Shown: positions 18,097 through 49,103 of the stretch, piece by piece
Layout of the letters: every line of letters begins with the position of its first letter
How positions within the stretch are numbered: the stretch's first letter is position 1
The notes under the pieces: model-generated
Database searches by the model: none
Told to the model about the DNA's origin: nothing
Seen by the model: only the letters and a program-made list of their open reading frames with translations
Assembly (NCBI RefSeq): GCF_947499565.1
Contig: NZ_CANMOV010000006.1
Strand: one strand, 5' to 3'
DNA length: 64,000 bases
Origin: an uncultured Croceitalea sp.
GTDB taxonomy: Bacteria; Bacteroidota; Bacteroidia; Flavobacteriales; Flavobacteriaceae
Program-made: the position numbers and the translations under genes

Positions 18097-18208
18097 GGGA
18101 TTTCTCAATCGTCGCCGAGCCTGTCCTTAGCAAAGTCGAAGGGCTCCTCATGTCGAAATGACTAAAAAAGAACACGATTTTCATTTCTAAGTGAATATGA
18201 GAAATCCC
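18097..18208. repeat. Orphan family A REP doublet (same unit as those flanking the GIY-YIG gene at 25.4 kb)
   Basis: Perfect 11-bp terminal inverted repeat GGGATTTCTCA...TGAGAAATCCC; the left half nearly matches 25259-25325. Confidence 0.88.
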
Positions 18209-25108: not shown

Positions 25109-25376
25109 GGATTTCTCAATCGTTGCCGAGCCTGTCCTGAGCGCAGTTGAAGGGCAACTCATGTCGAAATGACTAAAACAGAACTCACAGTCATTTCGAA
25201 CCGAATACAATGAGTGTGAGAAATCTAAAAACTTAACCTAAACACTCTTATTGGTCTTGGATTTCTCAATCGTCGCCGAGCCTGTCCTGAGCGTAGTCGA
25301 AGGGCTCCTCATGTCGAAATGACTAAAATAGAACCCAATGTCATTTCGAACCGAATGTAATGAGCGTGAGAAATCT
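25109..25376. repeat. Two family A REP doublets (118 bp each, 150-bp period) downstream of GIY-YIG-1
   Basis: 25109-25226 and 25259-25376: GGATTTCTCA...TCGAAATGAC-16 nt-GTCATTTCGA...TGAGAAATCT. Confidence 0.92.
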
Positions 25377-25674
25377 AAATGACGTCGTTATTTAAAAATT
25401 CCCACTCTGGATTAAAAGAAGAAATCAAGTTATCCTTTTTCTCTCTTCTCCATTTTTTCAATTCCTTTTCTCTAAGAATTGCTGACTCTATGGATTCAAA
25501 ACCTTCATAGTAGACAAGATGATAACAGTTGTATTTGCCGGCAAATGATTTTCTAGCATTTTGACTATCAAAATAATGTTGGGAAAGTCTTCGCTGGATA
25601 TCGTTTGTTACGCCAATATAAAGTGTGGTTTTGTTTTCATTAGTTACTATGTAGACAAAGTAGTTAGATAACAT
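25375..25674 (-). CDS. Small stand-alone GIY-YIG nuclease (GIY-YIG_unchar_3-like), copy 1
   Basis: FVY...LYIGVTND..RRL.QH, REKELKKWRREKK, FNPEW; catalytic Y/R/E/N appear intact; the TAG stop overlaps the repeat end. Confidence 0.92.
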   Translation of the reverse strand: MLSNYFVYIVTNENKTTLYIGVTNDIQRRLSQHYFDSQNARKSFAGKYNCYHLVYYEGFESIESAILREKELKKWRREKKDNLISSFNPEWEFLNNDVI

Positions 25675-25694
25675 CTTTTAAAAATAGTTTATTT

Positions 25695-25813
25695 AGATTT
25701 CTCAATCGTTGCCGAGCCTGTCCTGGGACGCAGTTGAAGAGCAACTCATGTCGAAATGACTAAAATGGAACCCGCAGTCATTTCGAACCGAATACTAGGA
25801 GCGTGAGAAATCT
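25695..25813. repeat. Family A REP doublet upstream of GIY-YIG-1
   Basis: AGATTTCTCA...TCGAAATGAC...GTCATTTCGA...TGAGAAATCT, 119 bp. Confidence 0.92.
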
Positions 25814-25857
25814 AAAAAATTAAACTAATCACTATCTTAGTCCAAAGCATTAAAATC

Positions 25858-43647: not shown

Positions 43648-44244
43648 TTACTTATTCATGAAATCCCTAAGGGTATCATACAAAGCTTCTTGCTTTTTTC
43701 TATCTTCCGGAACTTCTCTCAGAGGTTCTACTGGTTTTAGACTCTCGTGACATTCTGCCGGCAACTTCTGATACAATTGCGTTCCTTTAGTTTTCCAGGC
43801 AATCATATCATCGCTAACTTGTTTTATTACTTTAGCGGGATTCCCAACAACCAAACTACGTTTAGGTATTTTAGTTCCTGCTTTTACGAAAGCCATTGCT
43901 CCTACGATACTCTCATCGCTAATTTCTGCATCATCCATAATTACAGTATTCATCCCCACCAATACATTACGTCCAATATTGGCGCCATGAATAATAGCTC
44001 CATGACCTATATGCGCACTTTCTTTTAAGGTTATAGATTTTCCAGGAAACATATGTACCGTGCAATTTTCTTGTACATTAACGCCATCCTCTAAAACAAT
44101 CTGTCCCCAATCTCCCCTTATAGCAGCTCCTGGTCCTATATAACAGTCTTTTCCAATGATTACATTACCGGTTATAGCAGCCAAAGGATGCACAAAACTA
44201 CTTTCATGTATTACAGGTATGTATCCTTTAAAACTGTATACCAT
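43648..44244 (-). CDS. paaY: PaaY gamma-carbonic-anhydrase-like hexapeptide protein
   Basis: IRGDWG, NVQENCTVH and IGHGAIIHG motifs; paa cluster context. Confidence 0.85.
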   Translation of the reverse strand: MVYSFKGYIPVIHESSFVHPLAAITGNVIIGKDCYIGPGAAIRGDWGQIVLEDGVNVQENCTVHMFPGKSITLKESAHIGHGAIIHGANIGRNVLVGMNTVIMDDAEISDESIVGAMAFVKAGTKIPKRSLVVGNPAKVIKQVSDDMIAWKTKGTQLYQKLPAECHESLKPVEPLREVPEDRKKQEALYDTLRDFMNK

Positions 44245-44246
44245 TA

Positions 44247-44999
44247 CTAATTATATCTTTTCAAGGTTTCTTTGGTAAAATCACTTAAAACTAAGGTTCC
44301 ACTAATGACAGCACGTTCCATAAGTAAAGTATCCCAATCCTCTGTACCTTTCCAAAACATCGCTTTCATTTTAGACATTGCTTCTGGATTGTAGGTACAT
44401 AAGTTTTTAGCAAATGCCAATACCTCTTTATCTAAAGTTGCTGTATCCTCAAAAACTTTAGTAAAAAGCCCCTTATCTCTTGCCCATTCTGCTGGGTAAA
44501 ATGAGTTGGCATCAATAGCAATTTGAGACATTCCACTTAGTCCCAGTTTCCTTTCAACCGCTGGCCCTACTACAAAGGGGCCAATACCAATATTTAACTC
44601 GCTCAATTTTATAGCAGCAAATTTTGTTGCCATGCAATAATCTGTTGCAGAGGCTAATCCAACACCACCACCAACAGTTTTTCCTTGCACTCTACCGATA
44701 ATAAATTTTGGACACTTTCGCATCGCATTAATAACATTAGCAAAGCCTGAAAAAAAGGTTTTACCTGTTTCTGCATCATTAATCGCAACAAGTTCTTTAA
44801 AGCTGGCTCCTGCGCAAAAAGTCCTGTCTCCGCCGCTTTTTAAAACGATTACTTTTATAGCATCATCTTTTCCAGCATTCGTAATTGTTTGCGCTAATTC
44901 TGCCAGAATATCCCCTGGAAGTGAATTATGGGCTGGATGAAAAAATTCTATAAATCCTATCTGTTCCTCAACAGTTAATGTAACATAAGGTGCTGTCAT
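44247..44999 (-). CDS. Enoyl-CoA hydratase/isomerase (possibly the PaaF-equivalent)
   Basis: FCAGASF and GGGVGLASATD crotonase motifs; ATG at 44999. Confidence 0.85.
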   Translation of the reverse strand: MTAPYVTLTVEEQIGFIEFFHPAHNSLPGDILAELAQTITNAGKDDAIKVIVLKSGGDRTFCAGASFKELVAINDAETGKTFFSGFANVINAMRKCPKFIIGRVQGKTVGGGVGLASATDYCMATKFAAIKLSELNIGIGPFVVGPAVERKLGLSGMSQIAIDANSFYPAEWARDKGLFTKVFEDTATLDKEVLAFAKNLCTYNPEAMSKMKAMFWKGTEDWDTLLMERAVISGTLVLSDFTKETLKRYN

Positions 45000-45008
45000 C
45001 ACGCTTTT

Positions 45009-45032
45009 GTGTTCCCGAGTAATCGGGAATCT
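45009..45032 (+). repeat. Family F REP hairpin downstream of GIY-YIG-2
   Basis: GTG-TTCCCGA-gtaa-TCGGGAA-TCT. Confidence 0.8.
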
Positions 45033-45044
45033 ATTTTAAGATTA

Positions 45045-45332
45045 TTATTTCAAAATTTCATATAAATCCGTCCAATCGGGATTCGTTTTTTCTATTAATT
45101 CAATTTTCCAAGCCCTGTTCCATTTCTTCATTTGTTTCTCTTTCAATCTAGCTTCTCCTTCTGTTTTAAATTGTTCAAAGTAAACTACTTTATCCAAATT
45201 ATACCTCGCCGAGAATGTTGTTGGATGAGCTTTAGTTTTATGTTGATATATTCTTGTTTTTAATCTTTTAGTTTTTCCGATATATAGAACACCCCGCTTT
45301 TTATTTGTAATTATGTAAACATAGTGTTTCAA
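45045..45332 (-). CDS. Small stand-alone GIY-YIG nuclease (GIY-YIG_unchar_3-like), copy 2
   Basis: YVY...LYIGKT..LKTRIYQH, KEKQMKKWNRAWKIELIEKTNPDW; TTG start; inserted inside the paa cluster. Confidence 0.92.
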   Translation of the reverse strand: MKHYVYIITNKKRGVLYIGKTKRLKTRIYQHKTKAHPTTFSARYNLDKVVYFEQFKTEGEARLKEKQMKKWNRAWKIELIEKTNPDWTDLYEILK

Positions 45333-45354
45333 AATTTCAATTCTTATTTTAAAC

Positions 45355-45378
45355 GGCTCCCGATGACTCGGGAGTCAC
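45355..45378 (-). repeat. Family F REP hairpin upstream of GIY-YIG-2, inverted relative to 45009
   Basis: The minus strand reads GTGA-CTCCCGA-gtca-TCGGGAG-CC. Confidence 0.8.
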
Positions 45379-45396
45379 CTTGAACAATTCAGTTTG

Positions 45397-47895
45397 TTAT
45401 AGCAAATTGAATTGTTCAAAATGATGATTTAAATGCTTTCGCTCCAATAGCGCCCATTCATATCTATTTAAGAATCCAAAGACAGGGTTTTTTGTTCTTT
45501 CTTCTGGATTTGCATTAAAAAATTCTAAATATTGCTCTCTAGCCTCTAACATCCTTTCTTTTGCTATAGTCAAATTCTCATGCTTGGGGTTATTTATATC
45601 TGATTTTTCAGCTAGGGGAAAATCATAATCATGCGGCATCTTATCATAATTATATAAGGTAGCGTGCACTTTTTCTATAATTTTCTCTGGTGTAGAAATT
45701 TTAAAATCTTGAATTTCTCCTGAAGCAATTCGATAACTATATTCCAAGTGTTCTACCAAGCATTGCGCACTAATATTCCCCCATGTAGGTGTAGTTTTTT
45801 CATCAAGTTTAGCAAAACACTCCTTAATTTTAGTTTCGGTCATTTCTACAAAAGTTTCTTGTTTCTTTTGAACCATGGTGAGGATTGTTGCAATAGCAAC
45901 CAACTCATCTTCTGTGTCAAAAACCTCAACAAACCATTTTACGATACCGCTTGGATGTTCTGCTCCCGCAACATCTCGATCTACTTTTTGCTTACAGGTT
46001 AGTCTTACATAAATGGTATCGTTATGGTAAAGCGGTCTTAGGAAACGACACTCTTCTAAGCCATAGTTTGCAGCAACCGGTCCTTTATTTGGATAAACAA
46101 ATAATCCCGCCGCAGCTGAAATGATAAAATATCCATGCGCGGTACGCTTTTCAAATATGCTCCCATCTAAGGACGTTATATCGGTATGAGCATAAAAATG
46201 GTCCCATGTAACATTTGCAAAGTTGATGATGTCGGTATCGGTCAACGTACGTTTATGTGTTTTTAAGGACATTCCTGCTTCAATATCTTCCCAATGATAT
46301 TTGAACGGGTGTTGTGCCGCTTCTTTATATTTTGCATTGGCCTGATATATTCCGGTAATCTCCGTTAAAGTTGTTGGGGTTCCTTGGATAGCTGTACGTT
46401 GCAAATAATGTTTTATACCACGCATACCACCCATTTCTTCTCCTCCTCCTGCTCTACCTGGGCCTCCATGGACTAGATTAGGCAATGGAGAACCATGTCC
46501 TGTACTTTCCTTGGCGTTTTCTCTATTTAAAACCAAAATACGGCCATGATGACTTGCTGCATTTACTACATATTCCTTAGCAATCTTATCATCAAAAGTG
46601 GTGATTGACGACACTAAAGAACCTTTACCCATTTGTGCCAAAGTAATAGCCTCACCCAAATTCTTATAAGGCATAATGGTACTAACAGGACCAAAAGCTT
46701 CACGCTCGTGGATAATTGTATTCTGAAAAGGATGGTCCGCCCGTAATAAAATTGGGCTAATAAATGCTCCTTTTTTAGCGTCTGCTCCAATAGTTTCAAT
46801 CTTATCTAAATCACCGTAAACTATTTCTGCTTCTTTTGCTAAATCGTTTACAGAATCTCGTACCGCCTGTACCTGTTGTTGACTTACCAAAGAACCCATT
46901 CTTACTTCTTTTAATCTTGGATCTCCAATAGTTACTTTGTCCAATGCCTTTCCAAGAGCAATCTGCACATCCTCAACAAGATTTTCAGGAACTATAATTC
47001 GTCTTATAGCTGTACATTTTTGTCCGGCTTTCACCGTCATCTCCTTTCGCACTTCCTTTACGAACAAATCAAATTCGGGAGTCCCAGGAACTGCATCTTG
47101 TCCTAAAATAGAAGCATTTAAAGAATCTGCTTCCATAGTAAAAGGCACTGCTTCTTCAATCAAACGCGGATGTGCTTTTAACAAACGTCCTGTTGTTGCA
47201 GAACCAGTAAATGTTACCACATCTTGCGATGTTACCGTATCGAGTATCGTTTTAACCGTTCCATTAATAATCTGTAAAGCACCTTCTGGTAAAATGCCTG
47301 AATTTATTATTTCTCTAGCTACTGCTTCTGCTAAATACGAAGAAGACGGTGCAGGTAACACCACAGCTGGCATTCCTGCCATCCAATTGACAGCACATTT
47401 CTCTAACATACCCCAAACAGGAAAGTTAAAGGCGTTAATATGGACAGCTACTCCTTTTTTAGGTACCATAATGTGATGTGCCATAAATCTGCCTCCCCTA
47501 GATAAATCTATAGGGTCTCCTTCCACATGAAACGGTTGATTTGGAAACAGCTTACGCAAAGATGCATTGGCAAAAAGATTACCAAAACCACCTTCTATAT
47601 CAATCCAACTATCTACTCTGGTAGCTCCAGTCCTGTAACTTAAGTCATAAAATGCTTCCTTTCTTTTATTTAAGTAAAGTGCTAGTTTCTTAAGCATATT
47701 ACCTCTTTCTTGGAAAGTCATTTTGCGAAGAACAGCTCCTCCTTTATTTCTTCCATATTCTAAGGTTTCCGGAATATCTAAACCTTCAATAGCGATACTG
47801 GTAAAAGCTTCTCCTGTTACGGCATCAAGAACTGGTGTTCCTTCTTCTTTACCTTCTACCCATTGCCCTTTTATATAATGTGGTACTTTTTTCAT
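45397..47895 (-). CDS. paaZ: PaaZ (ALDH plus MaoC hydratase) with an extra C-terminal DinB/DUF1569-like domain
   Basis: [30 protein letters not shown] and RTAHGYF motifs; extension [13 protein letters not shown]...HLNHHFEQF; ATG 47895. Confidence 0.93.
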
Positions 47896-47897
47896 AA

Positions 47898-49103
47898 TCA
47901 CACTCTTTCTATAATCGCAGCATAGCCTTGTCCTACACCTATGCACATTGTAACTAAAGCGTACTTTTTTTGTTGTTCATGTAATTCCAAAGCGGCGGAA
48001 TATGCAATTCTAGCACCCGTTACACCTAAAGGATGACCTATAGCTACAGAACCGCCATTTGGATTCAATCTCGGGTCATTATCCGCCAATCCCCATGCCC
48101 GAGTACAAGCCAATGCTTGGGCAGCAAATGCTTCGTTCAATTCTATGACATCCATATCTTCCATGGTCAATCCAGCTTTTGCCAATGCCTTATTAGAGGC
48201 TTCAACAGGACCAATACCCATTATCCTTGGTTCCACACCTACCACTGCAGAACTTACTATTCTTGCCAAGGGTTTAAGATTGTATTTTTTAATGGCATCT
48301 TCAGATGCTATAATGGTTGCCGCAGCGCCATCATTTAATCCAGAAGAATTTCCTGCAGTTACACTACCTCCTTCTTTTTTAAATGCTGGACGCAGTTTTG
48401 CTAAAATCGCTTTTGTTGTTGTTGGTTTTACAAATTCATCTTTAGAAAATAGGATAGGATCTTTTTTACGCTGTGGAATTTCAACAGTGACAATCTCCTT
48501 AGCCAAACGCCCATTTTCTTGAGCTTTAGTAGCTTTCATTTGACTCCAATATGCAAATGCGTCTTGGTCTTCTCGAGAGATGTTATATTTTTCTACTAAA
48601 TTTTCGGCAGTATTTCCCATACCGTCTGTTCCGTAGAGTTTTTGCATTTTAGGGTTGATAAAACGCCATCCAAAGGTAGAATCGTACATTTTGGAATCTC
48701 CACCAAATCCCGTAGATGGTTTTGCAATAACATAAGGGCCTCTAGTCATATTCTCTACTCCACCGGCTATAAAAACATCTCCGTCACCGGCCTTAATAGC
48801 TCGGTTTGCATGAATCATAGCAGATAAGCCCGAACTGCATAATCGGTTCACAGTTTCTCCAGGAACTGTAAAGGGTAATCCAGCTAAAAGTGATGCCATA
48901 CGCCCTACATTGCGGTTATCTTCACCTGCCTGGTTTGCGCAACCCATAATTACATCATCATAAGCTTCTTTAGGAATATTTGGATTACGAGCTACTACCT
49001 CTTTAATTACCAATGCTCCCAAATCATCCGTTCTTACAGCAGACAAGGTTCCTTTATAGTTGCCTATTGGTGTTCTAATACCGTCTATTATATATGCTTC
49101 CAT
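47898..49103 (-). CDS. pcaF: 3-oxoadipyl-CoA / 3-oxo-5,6-dehydrosuberyl-CoA thiolase (PcaF/PaaJ)
   Basis: NRLCSSG, GNSSGLNDGA, ELNEAFA, AIGHPLG and CIGVGQG motifs. Confidence 0.92.
   Translation of the reverse strand: MEAYIIDGIRTPIGNYKGTLSAVRTDDLGALVIKEVVARNPNIPKEAYDDVIMGCANQAGEDNRNVGRMASLLAGLPFTVPGETVNRLCSSGLSAMIHANRAIKAGDGDVFIAGGVENMTRGPYVIAKPSTGFGGDSKMYDSTFGWRFINPKMQKLYGTDGMGNTAENLVEKYNISREDQDAFAYWSQMKATKAQENGRLAKEIVTVEIPQRKKDPILFSKDEFVKPTTTKAILAKLRPAFKKEGGSVTAGNSSGLNDGAAATIIASEDAIKKYNLKPLARIVSSAVVGVEPRIMGIGPVEASNKALAKAGLTMEDMDVIELNEAFAAQALACTRAWGLADNDPRLNPNGGSVAIGHPLGVTGARIAYSAALELHEQQKKYALVTMCIGVGQGYAAIIERV

Follow-up and report, generated by a model that had tools for sequence, protein, structure and literature searches.

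The Ssn family of nucleases (about 94 aa, single-domain GIY-YIG, CDD cd10448) was defined by Chenal et al. (Nat Commun 2025; PMC11893778). Its proteins bind single-stranded DNA only, on the forward strand only and with no cutting of double-stranded DNA, and they cleave a few nucleotides 5' of a hairpin motif, about 7 nt 5' of the stem in the case of Neisseria meningitidis SsnA (PMC11893778). The repeat recognized in Neisseria, NTS (CGTCATTCCCGCGMAVGCGGGAATCYRG), is a subset of dRS3, and its generalised form was named the Ssn-related motif, or SRM (PMC11893778). Specificity between nuclease and hairpin was demonstrated biochemically within the family, the C that follows GGGAAT is critical for binding in N. 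meningitidis, and 42% of the Ssn homologs have an SRM on both sides (PMC11893778). In Neisseria, SsnA modulates transformation, with a proposed genome-wide role in restricting transforming DNA that bears NTS, and the authors compared the NTS-ssnA-NTS arrangement to an insertion sequence and to REP/RAYT (PMC11893778). Two questions are left unanswered there: which function the family has in organisms other than Neisseria, and whether units of hairpin, gene, and hairpin are mobile elements; Bacteroidota go unmentioned (PMC11893778). A literature search for GIY-YIG enzymes associated with REP or REPIN found nothing, a search combining dRS3 and GIY-YIG led to the Ssn paper, and no Ssn paper later than the 2025 description was found.

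Here, we analyzed a locus of this kind in a 64,000-nt stretch of Flavobacteriaceae DNA, hereafter the window (contig C6:32817-96816 in a 3.89-Mb genome of 35% G+C). Very probably, an Ssn nuclease, its two cognate SRMs, and a 20-nt arm complementary to paaZ form a single cassette of about 400 bp that lies between paaZ and a hydratase gene and is tied to the 3' end of paaZ. Like the system of N. meningitidis SsnA (NMV_0044), the locus combines a single-domain GIY-YIG protein of about 94 to 95 aa with conserved Tyr and Glu catalytic residues and inverted hairpins of the ATTCCC...GGGAAT class, which have a 5' tag with GT and, following the stem, a C, and in both cases different enzyme clades are paired with different hairpins. 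Unlike that system, its hairpins fall outside the published SRM string and number two rather than the hundreds found in Neisseria, its lineage keeps to a single operon junction in many genera, and its left hairpin abuts a palindrome of 40 to 50 nt derived from the 3' end of the host gene. REP/REPIN-RAYT systems offer another parallel, being mostly vertically inherited and having a single-copy nuclease gene between inverted copies of a hairpin recognized as single-stranded DNA (by analogy in the present case); they differ in their HUH/Y1 fold, as opposed to GIY-YIG, and no REPIN population exists in this genome. Like the genes of the SegA-G homing endonucleases of phage T4, the cassette is small, promoter-less, and co-oriented with the conserved genes on either side, and its fixed site is filled in some genomes and empty in others; folded hairpins mark its borders, as attC sites do in integron cassettes. 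Unlike these two systems, the locus has neither a DNA-binding domain nor an integrase, and the Ssn family cuts single-stranded DNA only.

A GIY-YIG gene between two inverted hairpins in the paa operon

The initial annotation of this DNA had described a 95-aa GIY-YIG paralogue between the hydratase gene and paaZ, flanked by two inverted hairpins, and both the gene and the exact hairpin sequences were recovered (Table 1). All genes of the neighbourhood are on the minus strand, in the order thiolase, paaZ, ssn-like open reading frame, enoyl-CoA hydratase (ECH), and hexapeptide transferase. The ssn-like gene, encoding P0001, runs from a TTG start codon at 45330-45332 to a stop at 45045-47. The Pfam GIY-YIG domain spans residues 2-77 of the protein, and the Pfam search found no other domain or DNA-binding extension. 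Residues Y6, Y17, R27, and E65 are present in P0001 and invariant across the clade alignment; Y6, Y17, and E65 are the counterparts of the Y6, Y17, and E64 that were mutated in N. meningitidis SsnA.

Table 1. Coordinates of the cassette, its hairpins and palindromes, and the neighbouring genes in the window.
Feature	Position	Strand	Description
Hexapeptide transferase	43648-44244	-	Neighbour gene
Enoyl-CoA hydratase/isomerase (ECH) gene	44247..44999	-	Pfam ECH_1 1.2e-33; ATG 44997-44999; downstream neighbour
Mini-palindrome	45000..45011	+	CACGcttttGTG; between hydratase start codon and right SRM
Right (downstream) SRM-like hairpin	45009..45032	+	Stem-loop 45012-45029 = TTCCCGAgtaaTCGGGAA; GTG before, TCT after
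ssn-like gene P0001	45045..45332	-	95-aa single-domain GIY-YIG; Pfam E 1.7e-16
Left (upstream) SRM-like hairpin	45357..45379	-	Stem-loop 45357-45374 = CTCCCGAtgacTCGGGAG on + strand
Near-perfect palindrome, 40 nt	45380..45419	-	Centred on boundary of last sense codon and stop of paaZ
paaZ (Aldedh + MaoC hydratase fusion)	45397..47946	-	Pfam Aldedh 4.8e-52, MaoC 1.7e-19; upstream anchor of cassette
Thiolase	47898-49103	-	Neighbour gene

Both hairpins have a 7-bp stem and a 4-nt loop. The right one reads GTG-TTCCCGA-gtaa-TCGGGAA-TCT on the plus strand, forward on the strand opposite to the gene, and the left one reads GGTGA-CTCCCGA-gtca-TCGGGAG-CC on the minus strand, forward on the sense strand of the gene. 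The two are mutually inverted, forward upstream and reverse downstream of the gene, and this SRM>-ssn-<SRM arrangement recurs in all orthologous loci, where the left hairpin is kept through compensatory changes in its stem. The mini-palindrome between the right hairpin and the hydratase gene is present in some cassettes only and reads CACGCaaGCGTG in several relatives.

In the window, the pattern YTCCCGA-N4-TCGGGAR occurs twice against 0.02 expected, and both occurrences are the flanking hairpins. The genome-wide search for further copies that the initial annotation had proposed, run with strict and relaxed patterns over the whole 3.89-Mb assembly, returned none outside this locus. A generic search for the same hairpin class retrieved two to three loosely similar, solitary hairpins elsewhere in the genome, and four of five other cassette-bearing genomes have 5-21 scattered hairpins of this class. 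The possibility that the hairpins are simple terminators unique to this locus had also been raised. They are indeed unique here, but intrinsic termination was rejected for the operon (minus) strand, where no T-run follows either hairpin; the one weak terminator-like match lies on the antisense strand. A search for an Rfam identity for the locus gave only rteR, below threshold at 22.5 versus 72 bits.

The paralogue P0002 (99-aa GIY-YIG, 25375-25674) shares 39% identity with P0001, and three other weak GIY-YIG matches were found genome-wide, one of them at the locus of P0002 (locus 1, 25110-25830 and 18099-18197). The two matches outside the window, at C1:668167-668415 (inside a longer open frame of 286 aa) and C2:662012-662206, are 32-42% identical to P0001/P0002. 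P0002 is 43% identical to gonococcal ssnA and is bracketed by direct copies of a composite "family A" unit of about 125 nt, which has a terminal inverted repeat of its own (AGATTTCTCA...TGAGAAATCT). This unit, present in about four full copies genome-wide, all on the contig of the window, does not fit the published SRM string.

Membership in the Ssn family

P0001 shares 47% identity (E 2e-27) with the ssnA ortholog of Neisseria gonorrhoeae, a gene surrounded by seven NTS copies in a chromosome-sized record of the plasmid collection, and is nearer to this ortholog than to its own paralogue P0002. It is also 48-58% identical to the proteins of three loci (L068, L127, and L131) that carry exact or near-exact copies of the N. 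meningitidis NTS, forward upstream and reverse downstream of the gene. Homologs with 45-59% identity from Alphaproteobacteria, Patescibacteria, Ignavibacteria, Planctomycetota, and other groups have ATTCCCGCgaaaGCGGGAAT on the upstream side and, downstream, an identical stem closed by a tttc loop. In related genomes, the homologs nearly always lie between paired short inverted hairpins, the sequence of which varies with the protein clade. The initial annotation had argued for nuclease-repeat specificity from the two paralogues; that different clades carry different hairpins agrees with this view, as does the biochemistry published for the family (PMC11893778).

The likeness of the hairpins to the Neisseria dRS3 class, also proposed at the outset, is upheld by this family homology and by alignment to NTS. 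The right hairpin, GT(G)-TTCCCGA-GTAA-TCGGGAA-TCT, aligns with CGTCA-TTCCCGC-GMAV-GCGGGAA-TCY and carries the C after GGGAAT; the left hairpin also aligns with CGTCA-TTCCCGC-GMAV-GCGGGAA-TC. We then applied the published degenerate SRM search string, HGTCWYN(0-2)YYVSBRHN(0-5)WNVSBRGN(0-2)RNCYNB. Neither hairpin fits it, the right one needing three substitutions and the left one four; none of 30 clade loci fits it, and the whole genome holds a single exact match, which is at or below chance. As the string is a search tool and not a definition, the mismatch marks a divergent motif and still allows membership. Judged by homology and architecture, P0001 belongs to the Ssn family, and its flanking hairpins are to be read as divergent SRMs.

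It follows that the pairing of nuclease and hairpin and the insertion sequence-like layout are already published (PMC11893778), whereas the site fidelity after paaZ, the turnover of the unit as a discrete cassette, the flank-derived palindrome, and the divergent motif look new. With so divergent an SRM, this Ssn member would have been scored "no SRM" in the published survey. Since the published motif misses whole clades, the diversity of Ssn hairpins is underestimated, which bears on the proposed use of the family as a toolbox of single-stranded DNA cutters. Searches with P0001 gave no match in the PDB sequences, no match over the cut-off in NCBIfam, and no homolog in the phage collection.

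The gonococcal ortholog was found in two 2.17-Mb N. gonorrhoeae records (NZ_CP119142.1 and NZ_CP119140.1) that are filed as plasmids though chromosome-sized. In these records, the first common in-frame start (TTG) yields just 71 aa, and the frame stays open upstream of this TTG across the entire homologous region.

Insertion at the end of paaZ

We compared the paaZ-hydratase junctions of 30 Flavobacteriaceae genera, the two further same-genus genomes that have paaZ, and named species, a comparison that the initial annotation had suggested for finding strains that lack the unit. Such strains were found. In the same-genus genome G004, the site is empty, with the TGA of paaZ overlapping the ATG of the hydratase gene, and its alignment with the window leaves a clean 400-bp indel; the inserted segment of about 400 bp (45000-45399) takes in the 20-nt arm (45380-45399) that is complementary to the 3' end of paaZ. 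Empty sites are tight in about 12 genera, with the hydratase gene starting 0-21 nt past the paaZ stop. These alignments show the cassette to be an insertion exactly between the stop of paaZ and the start of the hydratase gene.

Site fidelity is strict. All 19 homologs with at least 61% identity in a sample of 401 Flavobacteriaceae genomes lie directly after paaZ and are co-oriented with it, as do all 12 such homologs among named GTDB species representatives (from Winogradskyella, Psychroserpens, Gelidibacter, Aquaticitalea, Aquimarina, Kordia, and Flavobacterium). Pooled, 28 distinct genomes or species have the cassette after paaZ, in one orientation and always with hairpins; a gene conserved at this position in relatives without hairpins, which would have spoken against the initial annotation, was not seen. 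The cassette is missing from most paaZ-bearing Flavobacteriaceae. In one genome (G019), the gene downstream of the cassette is not the hydratase, indicating that the tie is to the end of paaZ.

More distant homologs, with 52-57% identity, occupy adjacent junctions of the same operon. At the paaZ|ECH junction itself, three genera have an Ssn gene of an unrelated type (about 40% identity), whose hairpin differs (ATGCGCAacaggTGCGCAT), and five genera have gene-less inserts of 73-127 bp, four of which are visibly palindromic. The paa operon appears to be a hotspot with junction-specific Ssn lineages.

A palindrome derived from the 3' end of paaZ

The palindrome next to the left SRM is built from the host gene. 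Its 5' arm (45400-45419) is the final 20 coding nucleotides of paaZ, and its 3' arm (45380-45399), which abuts the SRM, is the reverse complement of the 5' arm with 18 of 20 positions paired. Folded as single-stranded DNA, it reaches -21.8 kcal/mol (z -7.1) and forms a hairpin stacked directly on the SRM hairpin. The reverse complement of the last 16-25 nt of paaZ, placed right after the last sense codon, was found in 26 of 27 distinct clade loci. The median arm length is 21 nt and the palindromes measure 40-50 nt; 12 are perfect, and 9 of the 27 are loop-less. In 13 loci, the centre coincides with the end of the last sense codon; in the others it is at most 2.5 nt away. Several loci have a stop codon that is simply complementary to the last Leu codon (CTA|TAG, TTA|TAA). 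On its other side, the non-coding arm extends as far as the stem of the left SRM or 1-2 nt into it. Arms are species-specific (24 distinct sequences among 26), with the non-coding arm matching its own coding arm at 96.9% of positions versus 75.3% for arms from other species. The palindrome was absent from empty sites and from every other Ssn locus in the comparison, whether at another junction of the paa operon or in another phylum.

Two loci bear on how the non-coding arm arises. In L138, it fits a paaZ end of the "FNLL" type, whereas the resident paaZ ends in "FGLL" (four transition mismatches), and in L137 one position follows the donor type. We therefore rejected the idea that a palindrome forms de novo with every insertion through fold-back on recipient DNA; the donor-type arms indicate that the arm is carried by the cassette. 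The C-terminal ends of PaaZ also differ, being mostly F(N/D)LL in filled alleles and FG(L/I)(I/L) in empty ones, which implies that the last paaZ codons usually travel with the cassette.

Selection at the RNA level found no support, given that wobble-type mismatches favoured neither strand (8 versus 6) and that some palindromes are loop-less, and this points to an origin or maintenance at the DNA level. A group I intron with an IGS-like palindrome was rejected by reasoning: the unit is too small and lies after the stop codon, and arms of 16-25 nt far exceed a P1 helix. The palindrome may be a relic of the founding insertion, kept perfect through intramolecular template switching, or it may be a duplex that shields the cut site.

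Gain, loss, and exchange of the cassette

On a tree of PaaZ and ECH from 49 loci, the state of the cassette requires at least 13 changes, at least six of which are forced by well-supported branches, and the window locus is sister (98) to the empty site of G004. Nuclease identity and flank identity are correlated (Mantel r = 0.45, p about 5e-4), which indicates that inheritance is largely vertical. Replacement is nonetheless evident within one genus, where L143 and L040 have unrelated cassettes in flanks that are 88-100% identical. L053 and L055 also depart from vertical inheritance when compared with L136, as the flanks are 92-93% identical but the nucleases only 75-77%. Clear recent lateral transfer is indicated by one genome pair (L055/L137), whose cassettes are 96% identical in flanks of 83% identity; the edges are sharp, and the high-identity tract extends from the palindrome centre to about 20 nt inside the hydratase gene. 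The window cassette and its nearest relatives have an identity of 0.77-0.79 as against 0.70-0.72 for their flanks, so that the cassette is only slightly more similar, and on this comparison it is an old one.

The empty site in the same genus, the unrelated cassettes at the same site, and the 96% versus 83% pair together indicate that the unit has been gained, lost, and exchanged as a discrete cassette. To this extent, the compact mobile unit of about 370 bp put forward in the initial annotation stands: it is an insertion with turnover, but one of about 400 bp, locked to its site and without evidence of transposition. Neither a second copy of the unit nor a dispersed hairpin family was found in this genome, which shows no sign of transposition. 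The multiple copies or varied sites expected of an insertion sequence were likewise not found, the unit being single-copy here and all 28 of 28 clade members lying after paaZ. An identical position in 28 species, always with hairpins, argues for a site-locked cassette and not a roaming 370-bp transposon.

Proposed activity and alternative explanations

By analogy with the Neisseria and Wolbachia enzymes, P0001 would be a sequence-specific endonuclease of single-stranded DNA, binding each hairpin in single-stranded DNA only and in forward orientation only, and nicking at a distance of about 7 nt on the 5' side of the stem. On the left, the nick is predicted at about 45380-45385 on the minus strand, inside the non-coding arm of the palindrome, and on the right at about 45002-45006 on the plus strand, about 5 nt from the hydratase start codon. 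There would thus be one nick per strand, just within each outer edge of the cassette. The cassette is co-oriented with the operon and would probably be expressed by read-through, and the nuclease may take part in moving or maintaining it. The lineage is mostly inherited vertically, but now and then the cassette has disappeared, given way to other Ssn cassettes, or been passed on laterally as a discrete unit. With two hairpins only in this genome, a restriction of NTS-bearing DNA of the Neisseria type would have almost no substrate here.

The palindrome sits where the enzyme is expected to cut; insertion chemistry may have left it as a footprint, or it may serve as a guide or protect the cut site. 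In the guide reading, which we regard as unlikely, the arm would be a built-in DNA guide: as single-stranded DNA, it would pair with the conserved end of the recipient paaZ (the HHFEQF codons), build a stem stacked on the Ssn-bound hairpin, and direct nicking and joining after the last paaZ codon. If true, such a DNA-guided, site-specific insertion of a cassette driven by a hairpin nuclease would be a mobility mechanism not yet described, and it would answer whether SRM-ssn-SRM units are mobile elements.

Three other explanations were weighed against the site-locked Ssn cassette. The unit could be an autonomous transposon resembling an insertion sequence, moved by a GIY-YIG transposase via single-stranded intermediates as in IS200/IS605 and REP/RAYT. 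Terminal inverted hairpins around one small nuclease gene do have the layout of an insertion sequence (see also PMC11893778), and the dispersed hairpins of four of the five other cassette-bearing genomes, the sharp-edged segment exchanged in L055/L137, and the different Ssn cassettes at the same and neighbouring junctions all fit this explanation. We nevertheless consider it improbable, because the unit is single-copy and has no other hairpin copies in the genome, the whole clade occupies one site in one orientation, the hairpins lie on opposite strands as opposed to the same-strand ends of IS200/IS605, and target-site duplications are lacking. To our knowledge, no strand-transfer activity has been described for GIY-YIG enzymes. 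The strict site specificity of the clade across genera, its patchy distribution on the host tree, the co-oriented position between two conserved genes, and the one transfer between diverged hosts would also be expected of a free-standing homing endonuclease like Seg of phage T4, which would cut the double-stranded empty paaZ|hydratase junction and have its gene copied in by repair from a filled allele. This is very unlikely, as the 95 aa amount to a catalytic domain alone with no DNA-binding domain, the characterised family members show no cutting of double-stranded DNA (PMC11893778), and empty junctions offer no hairpin to recognize; in addition, the single clear transfer involved little or no co-conversion of the flanks, and unrelated Ssn types share the junction.

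A domesticated host function, in which the nuclease would help the cell, for example, to control incoming DNA, to carry out repair, or to regulate the operon, and the hairpins would be regulatory or RNA-stability elements of the paa operon, would account for an intact gene with its catalytic residues at one operon position in at least 27 species and for a conservation of the cassette DNA equal to that of the flanking enzyme genes; it also has a precedent in the Neisseria homolog that modulates transformation (PMC11893778). The absence of the cassette from a same-genus relative and most paaZ-bearing Flavobacteriaceae, its replacement by unrelated cassettes, the presence of only two target hairpins in the genome, the palindrome mismatches without an RNA-strand signal, and the lack of a terminator on the operon strand all make this explanation a doubtful one, with a low probability. 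For the two questions left by the Ssn paper, the Flavobacteriaceae lineage provides a simple natural test case, with a single cassette, a pair of hairpins, and an invariant insertion point. The filled, empty, and swapped alleles of related species, together with at least one sharp-bordered transfer, suit tests of SRM-ssn-SRM movement.

Other inserts in the paa operon

Several loci of the comparison differ from the standard cassette. In G146 (L154/L155), three Ssn genes occupy three consecutive junctions: paaZ|ECH, ECH|hexapeptide gene, and the position after the hexapeptide gene. One of the gene-less inserts, an 87-nt remnant at the paaZ|ECH junction of G090 (L050), keeps the paaZ-derived palindrome and both hairpins but no longer the nuclease gene, and is either MITE-like or derived by deletion. 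At the paaZ|ECH junctions of L031 and L038, further hairpin doublets without a gene were seen (gtcattgcgag.. / gtcattcagagcgaagcgaagaatc..), and the same junction in G110 (L032) holds a 491-bp insert with no GIY-YIG match. In G021 (L027:120-760), the ECH|hexapeptide gene junction holds an Ssn cassette, and ahead of this cassette lies a directly duplicated segment made up of the reverse SRM and the first ~52 codons of the hexapeptide gene, giving the layout SRM_R-hexa5'-SRM_L-ssn-SRM_R-hexa(full), which looks like an SRM-associated duplication or rearrangement. Finally, in three Kordia loci (L061, L062, and L064) and in L148, the left SRM and a spacer of about 45-50 nt are tandemly repeated two to four times between the palindrome and the gene, a local array expansion of the hairpin unit.
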